Shown: piece by piece, positions 907 through 29,914 of the stretch
Position numbering within the stretch: the stretch's first letter is position 1
How the letters are laid out: each line of letters begins with the position of its first letter
Origin: a virus
Taxonomy: Duplodnaviria > Caudoviricetes
DNA: 30,154 nt
Direction: 5' to 3' (one strand)
IMG/VR virus record: IMGVR_UViG_3300031965_000116
Coordinates: 1 to 30,154 of that record
Notes under the pieces: generated by a model
The model's database searches: none
Told to the model about the DNA's origin: nothing
Seen by the model: the letters and a program-made list of their open reading frames with translations, nothing else
Position numbers and translations under genes: made by a program

Positions 907-1145
907 TAGGAATAATGCCAATGAAACGATCAAATAATATTGTATCAGTAAGATTTACAACAACAATTAACCTATGTGAAGGCAAGGAAAGGTTCACAGC
1001 TATTGATACTAGACGTAAAGAATACCAAGCTTGGACTATTACATCTAATAACTACTTCGTAGAGCTATATAATACTAGACTCAATAGATACTTCAAGATT
1101 CCTCTTCATATGGTTGAATCAATAGAGTTCGAAGCAACTGAGTAA
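897..1145 (+). CDS. Small hypothetical protein (start possibly 915 or 921)
   Basis: Fills the gap between neighbours, and its stop overlaps the TerL ATG (TAATG). Confidence 0.6.
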   Translation: MQLIGIMPMKRSNNIVSVRFTTTINLCEGKERFTAIDTRRKEYQAWTITSNNYFVELYNTRLNRYFKIPLHMVESIEFEATE

Positions 1146-3121
1146 TGGCTAACCAATTAAATCTATCAGACCGTCTTCTATTAGAATCTCTAGTAAGGAA
1201 GAAGGGGCTAACTCCAGATCAGATATCTAAGCTATCAGGATCTCTCCCTCAACAGAAGAAATACCTAGAATCTCTATTTCCTCTGCAGAAAGAGATACTT
1301 ACACATCCATCTAAGTTCAAGGCTATTCGATCAGGTCGTAGATTTTCCAAGACATTCGTAGTTTCTATAGCTCTAATAACTGAAGCATTGAAACGCCCAG
1401 GATCTTCATGTCTGTTTATTGCTACCTCAGTTGAAGCAGCTAAACGATTAGTTTGGTCAACTCTTGTAGAGTTTAATGAGAAGTATTCATTAGACATATC
1501 TTTTGATAATGCTAGCTCTATAGCTACATTCAACAATGGCTCTAAGATCTATCTAAAGGGCTGCGCCAATAGAAAGGAATGTGAGAAGTTTAGAGGTGAT
1601 TACTATAACATCGTAGCTATAGATGAAGCTCAGTCTTTCCCTTCTTGGCTTAAATACCTCATTGAAGAAGTATTATCACCTGCCTTACAAGATTACCAAG
1701 GAACTCTCTGGTTAACTGGAACAACCAACTCAACCTGTACTGGCTATTTCTATGACATCACAGCTAACCCAGATCAGCAGAACCTATTTAAGGTATGGCA
1801 CCATACAGTATTTGATAATCCTAAGTTTCCTCTATGGGCTGATAAAGACAATTGGCAAGAGATTGCAAGGAATTGGTGGCTACAATATCTACTTGAGAGA
1901 GGTTTAACTGAAGATGATCCACAGATACAAAGAGAATGGTTTGCTGAATGGATTAGGGATAACACAACTCTCGTATTCCCTTCACTATCTACTTACCTAC
2001 TAGATGAGCTTCCTAATGATCTCAACTATGTCATTGGTATAGATGTAGGCTTCATAGATGCTTTTGCAGTCGTTGTCCTTGGGTACACAGATAATGCTGC
2101 TTATCTAGTTGACGCCTATTCAGCTTCTGAAACATCAACTGATGAAAAGCTAGAAGTTCTCAATAGATTCCATAATAGATACAATCCTGTGATTACGGTA
2201 TGTGATCCAGGTGGTGGTGGTAAACAATTCATTCATGACTTTAACCTTAGATACAATCAAAACATCCAAGTAGCTAATAAAAGAGAAAAGCCACATAGAT
2301 TACAGCTTCTATCAGATGACCTTAAAAATAGAAAGCTTCTAATTAATCCAGATTTAACAGATCTGCTTTATTCTCTGAAGATCCTTGAATACTCCAATAA
2401 GTCTAAAGGAGAGATTCCTGAAAGCTACCCACAAGATTACCTAGATAGTTGTCTGGTAGGCTCTACGCTTATTGAAACAATTAATGGACCTAAGCCTATT
2501 AAGGATATTAGGCTAGGGGAATTAGTTTTAACTAGATCTGGTTATCGAGAGGTTCTTTGGAGTGGGATGACTAAAGCTAATGCAGAGTTGTATAGAATTG
2601 AATTTTCAGATGGTTCAAGTATAATAGGTACTAGAGAGCATCCAATCTACATTACGGAATTAGATGACTTTATATCTATAGGAGATATTCAATGTATATT
2701 AACAACGCAGGCTACAAAACTCAAGGTGGAAAAGGAATTGATGACATTGAATTTATCTGTCCTAAATGCGGGGAGACTTTTAAGCGAAACAAATACGTTA
2801 AGCCAGGATATTGTTCACGTAGTTGCAGTTCAAAAGCTTTTAGAGCAAGATGCCGTTTATAATCTCACCGTAGCTGATCATCCAGAATTCTTCGCTAATG
2901 GTATCCTAGTTCACAATTGTTCTTATGCCCACATGGAGCTTCCATGGGCTCTTTACAATATACAACCTAAGACAAAGAAGATTCCATTCGTAGATGGCTA
3001 TGACCCACACTTGGAATATCTTAAAGAAGAGCAAGCTCAGCAGTTAGCTGAGGAATCCTACCAAATGCAAGAATATCTAAGAGAATTCTTTGATAATCAA
3101 GGTCGAACTTCGTTCAGCTAA
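1145..3121 (+). CDS. terL: Terminase large subunit with intein (502 aa after splicing)
   Basis: Walker A-like SGRRFSKT, Walker B VAIDEAQ, coupling motif LTGT, RNase H-like nuclease VIGIDVGFID and C-terminal DYLDS motif. Lies upstream of the portal. Confidence 0.93.
   Translation: MANQLNLSDRLLLESLVRKKGLTPDQISKLSGSLPQQKKYLESLFPLQKEILTHPSKFKAIRSGRRFSKTFVVSIALITEALKRPGSSCLFIATSVEAAKRLVWSTLVEFNEKYSLDISFDNASSIATFNNGSKIYLKGCANRKECEKFRGDYYNIVAIDEAQSFPSWLKYLIEEVLSPALQDYQGTLWLTGTTNSTCTGYFYDITANPDQQNLFKVWHHTVFDNPKFPLWADKDNWQEIARNWWLQYLLERGLTEDDPQIQREWFAEWIRDNTTLVFPSLSTYLLDELPNDLNYVIGIDVGFIDAFAVVVLGYTDNAAYLVDAYSASETSTDEKLEVLNRFHNRYNPVITVCDPGGGGKQFIHDFNLRYNQNIQVANKREKPHRLQLLSDDLKNRKLLINPDLTDLLYSLKILEYSNKSKGEIPESYPQDYLDSCLVGSTLIETINGPKPIKDIRLGELVLTRSGYREVLWSGMTKANAELYRIEFSDGSSIIGTREHPIYITELDDFISIGDIQCILTTQATKLKVEKELMTLNLSVLNAGRLLSETNTLSQDIVHVVAVQKLLEQDAVYNLTVADHPEFFANGILVHNCSYAHMELPWALYNIQPKTKKIPFVDGYDPHLEYLKEEQAQQLAEESYQMQEYLREFFDNQGRTSFS
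2450..2917 (+). mobile_element. Class 1 mini-intein (156 aa) in the TerL nuclease domain
   Basis: Starts CLVGSTLIETING, block B GTREHPIY, block F VYNLTVADHPEFFANG, ends ILVHN followed by Cys+1. No in-frame endonuclease motifs. Confidence 0.93.
2692..2862 (+). CDS. Out-of-frame 56-aa Cys4 zinc-finger ORF nested in the TerL intein
   Basis: AGGAGA at 2680-2685, ATG at 2692. MYINNAGYKTQGGKGIDDIEFICPKCGETFKRNKYVKPGYCSRSCSSKAFRARCRL* contains CxxC...YCSxxC. Confidence 0.7.
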   Translation: MYINNAGYKTQGGKGIDDIEFICPKCGETFKRNKYVKPGYCSRSCSSKAFRARCRL

Positions 3122-3163
3122 GGCTGAACTTCGTTCGCCTAGCGAGCTTCGCTCAGCTAAGGA
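3099..3163 (+). repeat. Mini-hairpin element cluster (3 hairpins)
   Basis: GAACTTCGTTC twice and GAGCTTCGCTC once, linked by AGCTAAGGCT/GCCTAGC. Contains the TerL stop and runs into RBS AAGGAG. Confidence 0.9.
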
Positions 3164-5110: not shown

Positions 5111-5220
5111 AGAAGAGAAGAGGAGGGGGAGGGGGGGGGGGGGATGCTCCCCCCATTACTAGGGAGTTGTCTGTTAACTCATCAAGATAACTCAATTACG
5201 TCCCCCCTTGGGGGGGGGGA
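5111..5220. repeat. Purine tract, G13 and G10 homopolymers with C6 partners, and a TTAACTC..AATTACGTC motif
   Basis: G13 at 5131-5143, C6 at 5149-5154, C6 at 5202-5207 and G10 at 5210-5219, read directly. Confidence 0.85.
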
Positions 5221-5245
5221 AATATCCTTTAAGGCTAGACGTGGA

Positions 5246-5390
5246 GTTAGGGTCTCTTCAAACACCCCCTCTGAGAGGGGCCAGGATGCCCTACAATCGA
5301 TTTTAAGGCCTACCCTATACCTAGGCCTACCCCTAGCTCTAAAACAGCTCTAATGGCTTCTCAGAGCCTTCTGAGAGGCCTGCTAATTAA
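5246..5390 (+). repeat. ~140-bp dispersed element, copy A
   Basis: Inverted homolog at 26337-26477, e.g. CTAAAACAGCTCTAATGGC identical in reverse complement. Confidence 0.9.
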
Positions 5391-5414
5391 TGATTAACAC
5401 AACCAAGGAGATTA

Positions 5415-6368
5415 ATGACAATGGCCGATAATGATCAAACAGGCACAACTACTAACGAAGAAGTAATTGTATCTAATGTAGAAGTAGACCCACTTGATGC
5501 AATCATGCAAGATTGGGCAGATAATCGACAACAAGCAGATGATGTAGTAGTCGAAGACGAGGCTTCTAAGGCTGAACTTCGTTCGCCTAATGAAGAAGAT
5601 CCTAAACCACAAGCTAATGATACAGAAGACCCTGATAATGTAGAATCTGTTCAAGTAGCTAAGGGACTAGCTAAGCTAACTCGTAAAGAGAAGGCTTTAA
5701 GAGCCCGCGAGGAAAGTATTAAACAGGAAGCTCAACGATTACAGCAATTCCAACAGTTCCTTAACAACTCTAAACAAAATCCATTACAGCTATTAGATGC
5801 TGCTGGACTTACTCTAGATGATCTAGCTGAATATGTTTCAAAAGGAGTTATTGATACCAATAAACCAGATGATCGGTTATCTAGGGTAGAACAACAATTA
5901 GAGGAAGAACGTAAAGCTAGGCTTCAATATGAACAAGAAGTCATTAAACATCAACAAGAAGCTACAATTGATAAGTTTAAGACTCATATAGGCTCTGTTG
6001 TTGACACAAGCTTTCCTCTTATAAAGGCAAATAACGCATCTGATGTGGTATTTGAGGTAATTAATCAGTATTTTACTCAAACTAATCAAATACTACCTGT
6101 TGAGCAAGCAGCTCAACTAGTTGAGGAGGAGATTAGATCTATTAAAACCCAACCAACTAATGGCAATATCGCCGGAACAGAGGGGGAAGGTCTATCTTCA
6201 GCAGCTACTAACAGTAAACAACGACCAACATCAAAAAGCGCCACATTGAATAATAAGTTAGCTTCTCAACCAACAGATAACGTTTCTAGAAAACGTACAC
6301 AAGAAGAGGTAGATGCAGCAATGTATAGAATCATGCAACAACATGTCTCCTCTTCTAGACGAAAATAA
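5415..6368 (+). CDS. Capsid scaffolding protein
   Basis: RBS AAGGAG, acidic N-terminus, coiled coils, located between portal and major capsid gene. Confidence 0.8.
   Translation: MTMADNDQTGTTTNEEVIVSNVEVDPLDAIMQDWADNRQQADDVVVEDEASKAELRSPNEEDPKPQANDTEDPDNVESVQVAKGLAKLTRKEKALRAREESIKQEAQRLQQFQQFLNNSKQNPLQLLDAAGLTLDDLAEYVSKGVIDTNKPDDRLSRVEQQLEEERKARLQYEQEVIKHQQEATIDKFKTHIGSVVDTSFPLIKANNASDVVFEVINQYFTQTNQILPVEQAAQLVEEEIRSIKTQPTNGNIAGTEGEGLSSAATNSKQRPTSKSATLNNKLASQPTDNVSRKRTQEEVDAAMYRIMQQHVSSSRRK
5560..5590 (+). repeat. In-frame mini-hairpin element in the scaffold gene (ASKAELRSP)
   Basis: 31 nt identical to 8241-8271. Confidence 0.9.
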
Positions 6369-8191: not shown

Positions 8192-8464
8192 ATGAAGAAT
8201 AGCGCATTAATGCCTATGCTTATGAAGAAAGTGATGGAAAAGGCTTCTAAGGCTGAACTTCGTTCGCCTAAGGCTGATGGTGTAGTAATCGAAGTTGAGG
8301 AAGGAGATGAAGGTTTCTGTGAAGAAGCTGCTGATCTTCTAGAGAAGGCCTCTAAAGCTAAGATGTACGATGACTATGAAGCCGCTGAGAAGTACATGAG
8401 ATCACTACATGACTTATGGCATGCAGAGATGGATAATTCTCCATCTGATGATGAAGATTACTAA
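8192..8464 (+). CDS. Small acidic hypothetical protein
   Basis: RBS AGGAG; carries an in-frame hairpin element. Confidence 0.65.
   Translation: MKNSALMPMLMKKVMEKASKAELRSPKADGVVIEVEEGDEGFCEEAADLLEKASKAKMYDDYEAAEKYMRSLHDLWHAEMDNSPSDDEDY
8241..8277 (+). repeat. In-frame mini-hairpin element flanked by a CTAAGGCTGA direct repeat
   Basis: CTAAGGCTGA-ACTTCGTTCGC-CTAAGGCTGA. Confidence 0.9.
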
Positions 8465-13972: not shown

Positions 13973-16213
13973 ATGGCAGTTAAAACATCAGCTGGAATTT
14001 CTTCATCTAGTGTTGTCTATGGAGATTCAAATAATCTCGATGCTTTTCAAAGATTGAGAGTCTCTGAAATAACTAGTCTAGCTAACATCAGCCAACATGT
14101 CCATGCTTGGGATGGATTGATTGATGTTGAAAAGATAGGGACTGGAGATGTGGTTTACGACAATCCTAACTCTAGAAGGGTCTTAACTACATCAGCAGAT
14201 GAAGATGCGATTATCTGCCAGACATTCCCAAGATCGCCGTATCAGGCTGGGAAGGCTTTAAGTCATGGAGAGCCTGTACTCACTAATAAGGGATGGGTCA
14301 ATATTGAAGATATACAAATTGGAGACTTGGTATTTGATGGCAAAGGTCAATTAACTCCGGTAACAGGTGTATACCCTCAAGGTATGAGAGATATACTTAG
14401 AGTCACATTTGGTGATGGTATTTATGTAGATTGTGACAAAGATCATCTATGGAAACTATTACAAACAAGTCAAAATACTCATCCTGGTAAATCTTTTGTT
14501 CTATCTGCTCAAGAAATTCTAGATAAATATGGAAGCACTCCTGTGTGCCAGAAGCGTGTCAAAATACCAAGATCTCCTGTATTAGAAATACAGGAGAAGC
14601 CAGTTCCTATAGATCCTTACACATTAGGCGTAATCTTGGGTGATGGGCATATACAAAAACATGGGTCAGTTTCTGTTACTTCTGCTGATCCAGAGATACT
14701 TGAACATTTAAAATGCGACAAGTTGACTAAACGTAAAAGTAAATATGGCTATGGAGTTTTTGGTCTATCTAAAAAGATCAAAGCATTAGACTTAAATGGA
14801 AAAGTAGCTAAAGATAAATTCATCCCAAACGAATATAAACTAAACAGTAGAGAAGTGAGATTGTCTATTTTACAAGGCTTAATGGACACTGATGGCACTG
14901 TTGATAAACGTAGCGGTTGTGCGTATTATTGCACAATTAGTGATAAGTTAGCTGATGATGTAGAATTTCTTGCTCAGTCTCTAGGTGGGGAAGTACGGAG
15001 AAGGATTAAAGAACCTTTCTATTATAAAGATGGGTACAGAATATATTGTAATCGTGCACATATTCTGCACTTAAGACTTCCCTTCAATCCTTTTAAATTG
15101 AGTAGAAAAGCTTCTATGTGGAAAAGGAAGAATAATACCCTTGATAAGTTTATTTATTCAATCAAGCCAATTGGTAGAAGTCTAGCTACTTGTATAAGAG
15201 TAAAGAGTGAAGATCATACCTTTTTAACAAAAGGTTGTACAGTAACCCACAACTCCCAGCAGATATTGATGACCTTTGCTAATCTCACTCCAGAAGATAA
15301 TGTTATCAAGAGAATTGGTTATTTCTCATCTCCTGGCTCATTAACTCCATTTGATGATAATAAAGATGGACTGTTCTTAGAATCGTCTAATGGAGTAATG
15401 TCGATCAATATCTATAAGTCTGGAGAGGTGGTTGAGTCTACATCACAGGCTGATTGGAATATTGATTCATTTGGTGCAGGCTCAGTTAATTCTAGTGGAT
15501 TTGAGATCAATTGGGATAACTGCCAGATCCTACAAGTAGACTTTCAATATCTAGGTGTTGGCAGAGTTAGATGGAATCTAGTTATTGATGGAATAGTTCT
15601 CCCATTTCATGAATCTCTTCATGCAAATAATAGAGATACTGTTTACATGCAGTCTCCAGACCAGCCTTTAAGATGGGAAGTTAGACAGACAGGAGCTGGA
15701 AGTGGATCCTTTAACTTTATCTGTGCATCAGTAGGTACTGAAGGATCAATTAATAAGCTTGGTGATTCAAGAGCAGTTAACACAGGTAATACAGCTCTAA
15801 GCTTTCCTCTAAGTGGGACTGAATATGCAGTTCTAGGTATTAGGCTTCAAGATGGAAAACCAGCTGCTGAAGTTAACCATATCTCAACTTCAGTGTTGAT
15901 TACATCTAATAACAAAGATGCTAGATGGTCTCTCGTATTGAATCCAGTTATGACAAGTGGGCTTACCTATACTCCTATTCAAGATTCATCTATTGAGTAT
16001 GCAGTAGGTGGAAATCAATATGTAATTACTTCAGGGACCTTCTTCTATAATGAAGTGATTACTGCAGATATCGTATCAATCTCTCCTTTTGAAACATTAA
16101 GGAAGATCGGCGTGGCTATTGACGGAACTCAAGATGAGCTTGTTCTTGGCGTAACTCCACTGTCAACAAATATAGATGTGTTTGCAGCGATGAATGCAAG
16201 CGAGCTAACTTAA
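13973..16213 (+). CDS. Putative virion structural protein interrupted by a LAGLIDADG intein (413 aa after splicing)
   Basis: Extein motifs DAFQRLRVSE, YQAGK|SQQILMTF and DFQYLGVGRVR are beta-rich and typical of phage virion proteins. Located in the tail module. Confidence 0.7.
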   Translation: MAVKTSAGISSSSVVYGDSNNLDAFQRLRVSEITSLANISQHVHAWDGLIDVEKIGTGDVVYDNPNSRRVLTTSADEDAIICQTFPRSPYQAGKALSHGEPVLTNKGWVNIEDIQIGDLVFDGKGQLTPVTGVYPQGMRDILRVTFGDGIYVDCDKDHLWKLLQTSQNTHPGKSFVLSAQEILDKYGSTPVCQKRVKIPRSPVLEIQEKPVPIDPYTLGVILGDGHIQKHGSVSVTSADPEILEHLKCDKLTKRKSKYGYGVFGLSKKIKALDLNGKVAKDKFIPNEYKLNSREVRLSILQGLMDTDGTVDKRSGCAYYCTISDKLADDVEFLAQSLGGEVRRRIKEPFYYKDGYRIYCNRAHILHLRLPFNPFKLSRKASMWKRKNNTLDKFIYSIKPIGRSLATCIRVKSEDHTFLTKGCTVTHNSQQILMTFANLTPEDNVIKRIGYFSSPGSLTPFDDNKDGLFLESSNGVMSINIYKSGEVVESTSQADWNIDSFGAGSVNSSGFEINWDNCQILQVDFQYLGVGRVRWNLVIDGIVLPFHESLHANNRDTVYMQSPDQPLRWEVRQTGAGSGSFNFICASVGTEGSINKLGDSRAVNTGNTALSFPLSGTEYAVLGIRLQDGKPAAEVNHISTSVLITSNNKDARWSLVLNPVMTSGLTYTPIQDSSIEYAVGGNQYVITSGTFFYNEVITADIVSISPFETLRKIGVAIDGTQDELVLGVTPLSTNIDVFAAMNASELT
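14255..15253 (+). mobile_element. Ala-start class 3-type intein with LAGLIDADG homing endonuclease (333 aa)
   Basis: Starts ALSHGEPVLTNKGW. Block B DHLW (Trp), block F ATCIRV (Cys), block G TVTHN/S (Thr). Endonuclease motifs LGVILGDG and LQGLMDTDG. Confidence 0.92.
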
Positions 16214-16651
16214 TATCTTTTTTGTTAGCTGTGATGGAAGGGATTAACTCTTCAATCGTAATTACGTCGAGCCCTTCTGGGCGAGCTAACTTACAGAATG
16301 TGAATAACTAATAATGGAATGGAATCAATTACACACAGATAACAAAGATTGGAATATTCCATTTAGGATTAGCTGTGATGAATGTAATGAATAGACTTAT
16401 CACCAAAATCTCTATTCTAAACTCATCACATTGTATTTAAGAGTTAATGTGTAGCTTGTTCCCCCGCAAGGGGGACGTAATTACGATGTTTTGGATGAGT
16501 TAATGAATACTTGGTGAGCTTGACCCTCTAGTCAGTCGGCCCTGCGAGCCTTATAACCATCCATAGGAGTAATGTAATCGATTTGGAAAAGCTGTCAAGT
16601 AGCTGTGATGAAGATATCTAAACTTTTTTAATAGGAAATGTACAATTTACA
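16200..16651. promoter_or_regulatory. Repeat-rich intergenic region (regulatory hub, origin or ncRNA candidate)
   Basis: TAGCTGTGATG three times, GCGAGCTAACTTA twice, an inverted pair of ATCGTAATTACGTC each next to a GC hairpin. Confidence 0.6.
16571..16598 (-). promoter_or_regulatory. Candidate leftward sigma70-type promoter
   Basis: Minus strand reads TTGACA-16 nt-TACATT. Confidence 0.45.
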
Positions 16652-19744: not shown

Positions 19745-21787
19745 ATGCCACCTATGATGCCAAAAGCTAATGCAGCAACTGACCCTAACAAGAAACAGGT
19801 GAAGCCAGTGGTTGCTACTTCAGCTACCACACCAGCAACGTTAGATGTGAATAAGGCTGCTTCTACAGGACAACTCAAGCTAGTTGATAATACAGCAGCT
19901 AAGCTAGCAGCTGAGCAGGAGAAGTTAAAGCAGGCTTTAGCTGCACAGAATGCTCAACGGCCAGCAACGCTATCTGCGCCAATCCCTTTGCCACCTACTC
20001 CAGTTAATCCACTTAAAGAAGGTAAATGGGGCACAGCTAGCCAAGCTAGCACAGCTGGTCAAGCAGCAGCAGCTAGGAAAGCAGCAGAAGAAGCTCAGAA
20101 TGCTCCACCTGCAGCAACTAAGGCTCCAACTGCTCTAACGGTAGGTGATCAGGCTTTAAGTGATGCACAGCGGGTTCAGGCTGAAATTGAAGCTGCTAGA
20201 GCTGCAGCTGGACTTCCGCCATCATCTCCAGCTACTCCTAGTGATGATGTTGTATCTCAAGATGCGGTATATAATGTTGATCGAGTTAGAGCCGCGATAG
20301 AAGCTGCTCAAGGTCGTGAAAGAAATAGGCAGCGTGAAGCTGATGTTGAGGCTGGTTGGGATAGTTCCGTAGATAAGGAAGATAAGGAGAGATGGGCTGC
20401 TGATGCTGCTATTGGTGGTGCTGGTAATGGCCTAAGAGAGATAGCTGAAGATATAGCTGAATATGAGGCTGAACATCCATTTGAGGATGAAGCTAGGGAG
20501 CTTCAAGGGGGTGTGAATGAGCCAAGAGCTTATATCAGACATTTCCAACCATCTGCCGCAGGTGGCAAAGAAGAGGATCTTCGTTATCGTGAAGCCGTAG
20601 CAGGTTTATCATCAAGTGCTATGTCTGCATCTGAACAAGCCCAACAGCACTTAGCTGATGTATTAGCTAGAGATCCTATGCTTGCCGAGAAATATGGTCT
20701 AGGTGGAGTAGCTACATATGGAGGCGCTCAATACGATACTCAGACCCAACAGCAGTTTAGAGATATACAACAGCAGACTATTAATCAGTTGCTAAATGCT
20801 CCCTCTATAGCTCAACAGGAAGCTGATAGGGCTAGAGAAGCTGCTATGGCTCAACAGTTTGCAGCTTCAAGATCTGGACGTGGACAAGGTAATCTTGCAG
20901 CTAGTCAAAGATTAATGGGAACTAATGTAGCTCAGACTAATCAAACTATAGCTAGAGATGCTTCTATCGCAGCTGCTCAAGAGAATCTGGCTAGACAGCA
21001 AGCTGCTGCAGGAATAGCTGGAACAGCTAGGGGTATGGATATTGGTGTAGCTGGTACTGAAGCTGGTCTAGCTCAACAGGCTGGCCTATTCTCAGCTGAA
21101 CAGAGAAATCAGGCTGCTGAAGCAGAATTAGCTGCACAGATACAACAGGAACAATTCAATACTCAAGCTCAAATAGCTCAAACAGCTCAACAGGATCAGT
21201 TAAGATCTGCGCTAACAGCTCAACAGTTAGGATATGAGGGTATTGGAGTAGATGTTCTAGGACAGCAAAGAGCTTCAGATATCGCTCTAGCTAATCAAGT
21301 AGAGGCAGATCAGCTAATTAGAGAAGGTTATGACGTACAGCGGTATGCAGCTGACGCTGGTGTCAGAGCTGCAGAAGCTTCACAACCATCTTGGGGGCAA
21401 ACTCTTGTAGGTGGAGGCATGAATATCCTAGGTAGCGCTCTAGGTGGATGGCTAGCATCTGACAAGAATGTCAAGAAAGGTATTAAGTCTACTTCACCTA
21501 AGGATATTAACAGCTTTCTAGACGCCCTGGAGTCCTATGACTATAGCTACAAACGAGGTGATACTTCTCCAAAGACTGGTGTAATGGCACAAGATCTAGA
21601 GAAATCATCTATTGGTAAGAAATTAGTATCTGAAGATCCAATGAGTGGAACAAAGATGGTTGATACTAGATCAGCTACATTAACTATGATGGGTGCACTT
21701 AGTGAACTTCATAAGAGACAGAAGGCAATTGAAGCTGAACTTCGTTCACTAGGCGGTCTTAAACCAGCTAATAAGGGGAGACGATAA
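19745..21787 (+). CDS. Ejection (internal virion) protein with C-terminal peptidase S74 autocleaving chaperone domain
   Basis: Ala/Gln-rich helical body, Gly-rich hydrophobic segment, then SDKNVKKGI...YDYSYK...GVMAQDLEK from 21458. Confidence 0.78.
   Translation: MPPMMPKANAATDPNKKQVKPVVATSATTPATLDVNKAASTGQLKLVDNTAAKLAAEQEKLKQALAAQNAQRPATLSAPIPLPPTPVNPLKEGKWGTASQASTAGQAAAARKAAEEAQNAPPAATKAPTALTVGDQALSDAQRVQAEIEAARAAAGLPPSSPATPSDDVVSQDAVYNVDRVRAAIEAAQGRERNRQREADVEAGWDSSVDKEDKERWAADAAIGGAGNGLREIAEDIAEYEAEHPFEDEARELQGGVNEPRAYIRHFQPSAAGGKEEDLRYREAVAGLSSSAMSASEQAQQHLADVLARDPMLAEKYGLGGVATYGGAQYDTQTQQQFRDIQQQTINQLLNAPSIAQQEADRAREAAMAQQFAASRSGRGQGNLAASQRLMGTNVAQTNQTIARDASIAAAQENLARQQAAAGIAGTARGMDIGVAGTEAGLAQQAGLFSAEQRNQAAEAELAAQIQQEQFNTQAQIAQTAQQDQLRSALTAQQLGYEGIGVDVLGQQRASDIALANQVEADQLIREGYDVQRYAADAGVRAAEASQPSWGQTLVGGGMNILGSALGGWLASDKNVKKGIKSTSPKDINSFLDALESYDYSYKRGDTSPKTGVMAQDLEKSSIGKKLVSEDPMSGTKMVDTRSATLTMMGALSELHKRQKAIEAELRSLGGLKPANKGRR
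21733..21754 (+). repeat. In-frame mini-hairpin element (AELRSL)
   Basis: AGCTGAACTTCGTTCACTAGGC. Confidence 0.75.
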
Positions 21788-26336: not shown

Positions 26337-26477
26337 AATTAATAGCTCTAGAAGGCCCTGAGAGGCCATTAGAGCTGTTTTAGGGGTAGGCCTTACGTCA
26401 TACCTAGGGTAGGCCTTAAAAATCGATTACAGAGCATCCTAGGAGCTCTGAGAGGGTTCTGAGGGCGTTACCCTAAC
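26337..26477 (-). repeat. ~140-bp dispersed element, copy B (inverted)
   Basis: Reverse complement aligns by eye to 5246-5390. Confidence 0.9.
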
Positions 26478-26498: not shown

Positions 26499-26599
26499 AA
26501 GGTGTTCGCACCTAAGGCTGAGCTAAGGCTGAACTTCGTTCGCCTAGCGAGCTACGCTCAGCTACGCTCACCTAGCGAACAAAGTTCAGCTAAAAGGAG
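26499..26599 (+). repeat. Mini-hairpin element cluster (largest)
   Basis: AGGTGTTCGCACCT, GAACTTCGTTC, GAGCTACGCTC and GAACAAAGTTC hairpins, ending in RBS AAGGAG. Confidence 0.9.
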
Positions 26600-27231: not shown

Positions 27232-27489
27232 ATGAGTAATCAATTGAGGACAGTCACTCAGATACCACTTATCAATACTGGATCTAGGGAGTTTATCCAG
27301 TTGCAGCAGAATATTAACAAAGCTCTCCAGATCATCTCTAATAACTTTCTCAATACAATCGTTACGTCTGATGACAATGTTGATTCAACTAATCATATTG
27401 TATTAACTACAGTAAGTGGAGTCATTGATAATAGTCTATTAGATATCAATGGGTTAGCTGTGCTAGTATCAGGGCTCATCCTTAGCTGA
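27232..27489 (+). CDS. Hypothetical protein
   Basis: RBS AGGAG. The stop codon falls inside the inverted hairpin element. Confidence 0.6.
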   Translation: MSNQLRTVTQIPLINTGSREFIQLQQNINKALQIISNNFLNTIVTSDDNVDSTNHIVLTTVSGVIDNSLLDINGLAVLVSGLILS

Positions 27490-27527
27490 GCGAAGCTCGC
27501 TAGGTGAGCGTAGTTCAGCCTTAGCTG
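27481..27527 (-). repeat. Mini-hairpin element, inverted copy flanked by a CTTAGCTG direct repeat
   Basis: Reverse complement reads CAGCTAAGGCTGAACTACGCTCACCTAGCGAGCTTCGCTCAGCTAAG. Confidence 0.9.
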
Positions 27528-29397: not shown

Positions 29398-29869
29398 TCC
29401 TAAATACTTTGAACCTAGATTATTAACACCTACAGAACGTGAAAGATACGAAACTGAACATCGTTATCTAGAGTCTCCAATTGATACAAGTATTCTAGAT
29501 AACTGGTCTGCAACTCAATCACTTGACTCTCCAAGGATTGGTTCACAAAAACCACAAAGCATTTTATCTGTATGTAAAGTTCCTGATTGTAGAGGAATTG
29601 TTTGGGCTAAGCAGAAGTGTAGGACGCACTATGGTAAAGCATACAGAGAGAAGAGAAAGGAGCTCGTCATGCTTTTAGCTGGTCTTCATTCGCCTAAAAG
29701 CCCTTCTAAGCAATCTTCAGAGCTAACTACCCCTAGTACCCTGGGTAAGCTTCTGAAAACGCCTCAGAACCCCTCTCAGAGCCTTCCAGAGGCATCTACG
29801 TCAACTACCTTCACCCCTGAGGAGATGGTCAAGCTAATAAAGCTTCTACTTGAAGCAACGAACAGCTAA
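29387..29869 (+). CDS. Small zinc-finger protein (C-x4-C...C-x2-H)
   Basis: CKVPDCRGIVWAKQKCRTHY. The Pro/Ser-rich part is encoded by copy C of the 140-bp element. Confidence 0.6.
   Translation: MMTNPKYFEPRLLTPTERERYETEHRYLESPIDTSILDNWSATQSLDSPRIGSQKPQSILSVCKVPDCRGIVWAKQKCRTHYGKAYREKRKELVMLLAGLHSPKSPSKQSSELTTPSTLGKLLKTPQNPSQSLPEASTSTTFTPEEMVKLIKLLLEATNS
29690..29795 (+). repeat. Degenerate copy C of the ~140-bp element, inside a coding sequence
   Basis: CTACCCCTAG and CTCAGAACCCCTCTCAGAGCCTTC match blocks of copies A and B. Confidence 0.65.
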
Positions 29870-29914
29870 GGCTGAGCTACGTTCGCCTAGCGAACAAAGT
29901 TCAGCTATAAGGAG
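29864..29914 (+). repeat. Mini-hairpin element cluster
   Basis: AGCTAAGGCTGAGCTACGTTCGCCTAGCGAACAAAGTTCAGCT, between a stop codon and RBS AAGGAG. Confidence 0.9.

Follow-up and report, generated by a model that had tools for sequence, protein, structure and literature searches.

Is a reading frame that lies out of register inside an intein a gene in its own right, or what is left of a larger one? The question is raised by 30,154 nucleotides of DNA from a member of the Caudoviricetes (IMG/VR record IMGVR_UViG_3300031965_000116; the whole stretch is called the window here), a phage head-and-tail gene region in which the gene of the large terminase subunit (TerL) is followed by genes matching portal and capsid families. 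TerL contains a mini-intein, and the linker between its splicing blocks holds a 56-codon open reading frame (ORF) in the -1 frame. A sequence-only reading had taken this ORF for the separately translated cargo of an intein class, i.e., either a remnant of an HNH endonuclease or a retained small DNA-binding protein.

The terminase intein and its out-of-frame ORF

The intein lies near the C-terminal end of the TerL nuclease domain, between DYLDS and CSY. Class 1 inteins are defined by Cys or Ser at position 1, T-x-x-H in block B, a terminal His-Asn, and Cys, Ser, or Thr at position +1. The intein of the window has the sequence features of this standard class (C1, T61-x-x-H64, H155-N156, and Cys+1), and these residues are invariant in an alignment of 17 sequences. 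Pfam Intein_splicing matched with an E value of 6e-8 and 33 bits, slightly under the cut-off of 35.8, and a single-sequence fold model had a pLDDT of 30.

Table 1. Features of the terminase locus (window coordinates)
Feature	Position	Strand	Evidence
TerL gene (658-aa precursor, hosts the intein)	1145..3121	+	Terminase_6C, E 8e-4
Mini-intein, 156 aa, TerL frame; Cys1, T-x-x-H in block B, V-Y-N-L in block F, and Cys+1 after the terminal His-Asn	2450..2917	+	
Shine-Dalgarno AGGAGA (-7.3 kcal/mol), spelled by the Ile-Gly-Asp codons of the intein	2680..2685	+	
56-aa ORF, -1 frame; has the start, the final zinc finger, and the stop codon of the HNH homing-endonuclease gene of the family but no HNH core	2692..2862	+	
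Junction of the inferred in-register deletion (approximate position; ORF codons 2-9)	2695..2718	+	profile match starts at ORF residue 9
C-x2-C-x14-C-x3-C finger	2758..2826	+	sequence and profile match
TAA stop within the Tyr-Asn codons of block F, 55 nt ahead of the end of the intein	2860..2862	+	

All ORF features that had been claimed from the sequence were present, namely AGGAGA, the ATG at 2692, 56 codons, four Cys, a TAA over the Tyr-Asn of block F, and two open frames, so that the window does contain a second ORF between the splicing blocks of an open intein frame. Six bases separate AGGAGA from the ATG, and in strength this ribosome-binding site (RBS) equals those of many window genes. 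The Cys residues are 23, 26, 41, and 45, the second pair overlying the Val/Ala-rich stretch ahead of block F, and the Gly-Asp-x-x-Cys register of the start is common to loci L044, L066, L069, L138, L149, and L238. The size of the ORF and its RBS are by themselves weak evidence; three out-of-frame ATG ORFs of at least 50 aa with a Shine-Dalgarno (SD) energy of -5 kcal/mol or lower, in two distinct frames, were found in 22 kb of other window genes.

More specific is the resemblance to a protein family. When all six-frame segments of the window were compared with a profile of 86 full-length -1-frame proteins of related inteins, the ORF matched with an E value of 2e-9 and the sole other matching segment with 0.39. 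The match is confined to positions 170-214 of 223, which comprise the last finger and the link leading into it, and includes the non-Cys residues G-I-D-D and F-x-x-N-K-Y of the family's terminal finger. The finger scored 44.9 bits, which is the median of 82 intact terminal fingers, and is hence undecayed. The HNH core, the helical linker, and the other fingers are absent; a Pfam scan of the ORF gave no HNH_3 match, so that it holds no complete nuclease domain, and the profile found no full nuclease copy in the six-frame segments elsewhere in the window. Residues 2-8 may come either from the nuclease N terminus or from the end of the penultimate finger.

Several other features of the window were recorded. 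A GNAT acetyltransferase gene (460-906) lies immediately upstream of terL, and a 746-aa gene contains a second intein-like region (13973-16213), in which Hint_2 matched weakly and a LAGLIDADG_3 domain (E 7e-11) is in frame. An internally self-complementary 44-nt repeat with the core AAGGCTGAACTTCGTTCGCCTA is dispersed between and inside genes (3116-3159, 5564-5607, 8245-8288, 21727-21770, 26521-26592, 27479-27527 [inverted], and 29864-29907), with related copies on other contigs of runs X1 and X6. The region after the portal gene (5120-5400) is rich in G/C runs, and segments of 33 to 41 nt from it recur in inverted orientation in intergenic DNA elsewhere (16461-16493 and 26350-26390).

Hidden HNH genes in related long inteins

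A protein search with the intein region yielded 102 proteins including that of the window, i.e., 101 homologues, and in most of the matches listed the intein has about 250-345 aa and a linker without features. DNA loci were collected as the best 80 from each of three collections with the 17-sequence alignment as the query; seven earlier loci, two annotated phage records, and the window brought the total to 250. Both intein ends were present in 200 of these, of which 187 were distinct, and after removal of one with a cut start, 117 long (at least 700 nt) and 69 short inteins remained. Searches with the window's own sequences were far less productive. The viral-contig search with the intein gave only three distant loci, none of the three candidates from a search with the TerL extein was accepted as a close relative, and the protein search with the 56-aa ORF retrieved no homologue. 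Four loci matching a 22-residue stretch of the ORF had no intein or finger context and were treated as chance. Neither an empty nor a full-length allele of this terL was seen in these direct searches.

Of the 117 long inteins in this sample, 95 encode an HNH_3 nuclease in the -1 frame, in nearly all cases one with zinc fingers at its C terminus. This share describes the clade of the window intein and not all inteins, the sample being ranked by likeness to it. Motifs identified 88 of these as -1-frame ORFs with an HNH motif plus fingers; all 30 of their proteins that were scanned passed the Pfam HNH_3 cut-off, and so did seven additional long inteins in the -1 frame. The prediction that homologues would include longer versions with an HNH core was thus borne out, as was the broader claim that the cargo of this intein class is an overlapping gene read in a different frame. 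The family gene has about 140-250 codons for an HNH_3 core, a helical linker, and one to three four-Cys fingers, and it overlaps the intein linker. As in the window, 55 nt separate its stop from the intein end in 31 of the 88 full-length elements; the distance is 43 nt in 17 and 64 nt in 13. Endonuclease VII was not detected at an E value of 0.001 or lower in 30 cargo proteins tested. The best match of the family profile among solved structures was I-HmuI (1u3e; E 7e-6). One full-length protein was modelled with a pLDDT of 97 and a pTM of 0.70; with this model, Foldseek matched phage HNH proteins but nothing in the PDB at an E value of 0.001 or lower, the top entry being again I-HmuI (0.15).

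The hidden gene of the full-length relatives is under purifying selection. In 13 pairs, some of which share members, the linker contained 361, 873, and 404 substitutions at intein codon positions 1, 2, and 3, and intein position 2 corresponds to codon position 3 in the -1 frame. The corresponding numbers were 181, 127, and 388 in the N-terminal splicing part and 18, 16, and 83 in the other part. Linker dN/dS was 0.00-0.35 in the -1 frame (10 computable pairs, three being saturated) versus 0.72-4.74 in the intein frame (12 pairs). Conservation in the linker therefore follows the -1 frame, and the frame-specific test decided against the opposite outcome, in which it would have followed only the intein frame. 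The intein frame is nevertheless open in 86 of the 88 full-length elements, for which about five stops would be expected from random synonymous codons.

Conservation of the RBS, which had also been predicted, was found in part. With starts called blind to the SD sequence in 84 of the 88 full-length elements, an SD energy of -4 kcal/mol or lower was present at 51 of 84 starts versus 27.5% of 1199 control ATGs (p 4e-9), but a third of the starts have little SD. The enrichment suggests that the hidden gene is translated separately. That standard annotation would miss such a gene was confirmed in the named phage genomes OP947163.1 and HQ225832.1, where the only annotation of a locus with a hidden HNH gene is terminase. 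No match of the nuclease profile was obtained in the intein frame of the 101 protein homologues, whereas an intein-frame "shadow" profile of the hidden nuclease matched 91 of them (E < 1e-5) and none of their locally shuffled copies.

The 88 full-length elements occupy several insertion sites, i.e., between D-H and C-x-D-A, three codons later between D-x-x-D-A/S and C-R-Y (the type of the window), and also between A-W and C-D-E, Y-E-Q and C-K-V, and G-F-S and C-D-P, which indicates that the target changed repeatedly. Other cargoes were observed as well. A DUF559 (Vsr-like) nuclease on the sense strand in the +1 frame replaces HNH in L057 (1944-2606), L164, L077, L183, L188, L196, and L246, and is frameshifted in L209. 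L204 has an out-of-frame LAGLIDADG_2 cargo (1582-2559, -1 frame), L217 has fingers with a C-terminal HNH (1680-2552, +1 frame), and L152 and L163 (1507-2520) encode DUF7487 proteins while the intein frame is interrupted; the varied out-of-frame cargoes of these four loci point to several separate invasions. In L001 (1827-2740), L002, and L003, the halves of the terminase intein are split by a +1-frame ORF with an HNH motif, the intein frame has stops, and an ATG precedes the C-terminal half. This looks like the split-intein "fractured gene" arrangement that Dassa is said to have described in 2009.

Probable decay of the hidden gene in short inteins

Remnants of the hidden nuclease were found in 14 of the 69 short inteins of the likeness-ranked sample, including that of the window. 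The terminal-finger profile scored at least 19.8 bits in 13 of the 69, again with the window among them, and the next score was 3.4; the remaining remnant, L022, retains only the N terminus of the hidden gene. All 14 junctions differ. Eight remnants have four Cys and an open frame, six of them with a start and an SD energy of -5 kcal/mol or lower, five others have no complete finger, and in the last a stop codon directly precedes the finger. Full-length elements are present in the sister group of 12 of the 14 remnants in a 109-column tree, from which five full-length rows were omitted and which has low support at several remnant nodes; it serves here only to show that the remnants are not a single group.

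The best example is L258 (= L009), which differs from the 94% identical full-length L260 by a single 489-nt deletion. It fuses codon 5 of a 206-aa HNH_3 gene to the last finger and so yields a start, five residues, and the last finger, which is the shape of the window ORF. The 5' parts differ at 17 of 269 bases, and six of 10 changes in the ORF after the junction are synonymous in the -1 frame, but these are not polarised and may predate the deletion. A search for close relatives of the remnant L008 returned L008 alone, and the closest full-length relative of the window intein among the loci collected is at best 54% identical.

We conclude that the 56-codon ORF is likely, with good though not complete confidence, a functionless remnant of the -1-frame homing-endonuclease gene of a terminase intein, left by an in-register deletion of the core. 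The HNH remnant proposed as one of two options in the sequence-only reading is well supported by the match to the family's last finger and by the parallel of L258 and L260. In the relatives, ribosomes would start inside the terL mRNA and produce a free nuclease. By cutting terL alleles that lack an intein, this enzyme would spread the intein, which itself would splice out of TerL with a junk linker. In the window, a deletion of 3n bases would have taken out the nuclease core and the other fingers. Since TerL is essential, only deletions by a multiple of three could survive, and these preserve both frames; since the deletion also had to spare the splicing blocks, both frames could stay open without selection on the peptide. 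On the 5' side the deletion would not have reached into the N-terminal splicing part, where Gly-Asp codons double as the RBS; on the 3' side it would have stopped short of the Val-rich stretch and block F, with which the last two Cys and the stop overlap. RBS, start, finger end, and stop may thus have been spared together with the splicing blocks. Where the -1 frame has a Cys codon, the intein frame reads Val or Ala, as would suit the stretch before block F; Val enrichment at this place is also present in mini-inteins without remnants. With surviving deletions constrained in this way, the start-plus-finger shape would need no function. The intein would have kept splicing and lost self-homing, and the peptide, if made at all, would be without effect. 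The deletion is probably recent.

What counts against a mere remnant is the undecayed finger, the gene-like RBS, the four Cys and open frame in eight of 14 remnants, the share of synonymous changes in L258/L260, and a first Cys pair in a linker that is absent from minimal inteins and that the intein structure therefore does not require. These observations would suit a small, basic, Zn-binding protein that was created by the deletion and is now kept for a function, e.g., protection of the bound terL target against related nucleases or an effect on a host protein, but we consider this unlikely. The start-plus-last-finger shape does recur in eight of the 14 remnants, and Foldseek with the model of a full-length relative gave weak matches to the stand-alone YacG and FCS fingers (E 0.4-1.2). 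However, junctions and N termini differ in every remnant, the finger is lost or cut off in six of 14, and the ranking of loci by likeness to the window intein favours finger-keeping remnants in the sample. Moreover, YacG was not matched in Pfam at an E value of 0.1 or lower (the relative's finger versus 1lv3 gave 0.42 in Foldseek), no free-standing homologue of 30-98 aa was found in a word-based search of limited sensitivity, and the pair L258/L260 shows that the shape can arise in one step. The wider form of this idea, that repeated independent deletions turn the hidden nuclease into a separately translated zinc-finger protein kept by phages, appears equally doubtful. The intact finger is compatible with a recent deletion as well as with a kept function; the broken remnants and varied junctions favour decay.

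Two further explanations do without either decay or function. The ORF might be a by-product of intein-frame constraints without nuclease ancestry, with Gly-Asp codons giving the RBS, Val/Ala codons the Cys, and Tyr-Asn the stop. These overlaps are really present, and in 20,000 synonymous recodings of the intein protein the four-Cys pattern arose in 8% and the open frame in 1.5%, but the match to the terminal finger (E 2e-9), which includes non-Cys residues, largely refutes this reading, and 55 of the 69 short inteins have no -1-frame remnant; it is thus very improbable. Least credible of all, to the point of being negligible, is a collapse of a full-length element during assembly. The window is a metagenomic contig and coverage was low in the runs compared, yet the junction zone is spanned without differences by contigs of two runs, X3 (2624-2958) and X5 (2677-2837), neither a joint nor a loose end occurs there in eight of 11 runs, and all contigs across the ORF in these eight are identical, without variants. 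None of the 11 was listed as an RNA run. Run X1, which may be the source sample, was left out of the short-allele count.

Relation to known dual-coding inteins

The family profile matches I-HmuI-type HNH proteins (1u3e; HNH_3) only over the core and the helix after it, and the window ORF contains no part of such a core. I-HmuI is intron-encoded. Out-of-frame intein nucleases of the endonuclease VII and LAGLIDADG types have already been published, and the HNH family in terminase inteins appears unreported. In the accessible part of their preprint, Gosselin, Arsenault, and Gogarten (10.1101/2025.01.02.630785) described actinobacteriophage inteins with an endonuclease VII-like homing endonuclease in frame 3, and others with antisense LAGLIDADG or VSR-like cargo, with HNH listed there only in frame; the layouts were called rare, decay to mini-inteins was predicted, and a survey of relics was said to be needed. 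Our inteins resemble these in the sense-strand nuclease in frame 3 (= -1) between the splicing blocks, in the featureless intein-frame linker, and in the host gene, many of the non-canonical inteins of that account being in TerL. They differ in a cargo of HNH_3 with C-terminal four-Cys fingers instead of endonuclease VII, in its frequency (95 of 117 long inteins in the present likeness-ranked sample), in the sense-strand +1-frame position of the DUF559 cargo, for which the VSR-like counterpart is given there as antisense only, and, for the window copy, in the lack of a nuclease.

The cyanobacterial dnaX intein of Phillips, DeSimone, and Gogarten (10.64898/2026.09.14.751524) carries an out-of-frame LAGLIDADG endonuclease as a +2 ORF with a putative Shine-Dalgarno sequence and frame-specific purifying selection, and full and mini alleles coexist. 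The nuclease family and the cellular host gene are different, and a finger-bearing remnant is not described in the accessible text. The ShiLan insertion in phage DNA methylases (Arsenault, Gosselin, and Gogarten 2025; PMC11855218) likewise hides HNH and zinc fingers in frame 3 while the host frame stays open, but according to the part of that article available it has no splicing domain and no detectable RBS, the fingers flank the core, and the host is a methylase. A literature search, mainly of openly available full texts, found no description of a -1-frame HNH-plus-finger family in terminase inteins or of its remnants; supplements of the preprints may list members.

Overall, the comparison of loci supports the view that a large clade of terminase inteins routinely carries an HNH endonuclease as an overlapping -1-frame gene and that its RBS and stop are written into conserved codons of the intein itself. 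Our verdict from the sequences is that this dual-coded family is widespread and the window ORF probably a decayed member. Should a kept zinc-finger protein be true after all, it would be a new gene born inside an intein, e.g., a nuclease-free binder guarding the terminase against homing; most likely, the ORF is one decay step and not a new gene. The succession of full element, remnant, and clean mini-intein would represent the relic series that was said to be needed in the accessible part of Gosselin et al. (10.1101/2025.01.02.630785), and it gives a testable picture of homing-nuclease loss. Because an out-of-frame HNH gene is what inteins of this broad terminase clade usually carry, and such genes escape protein annotation, many seemingly "degenerate" TerL inteins may be mobile.
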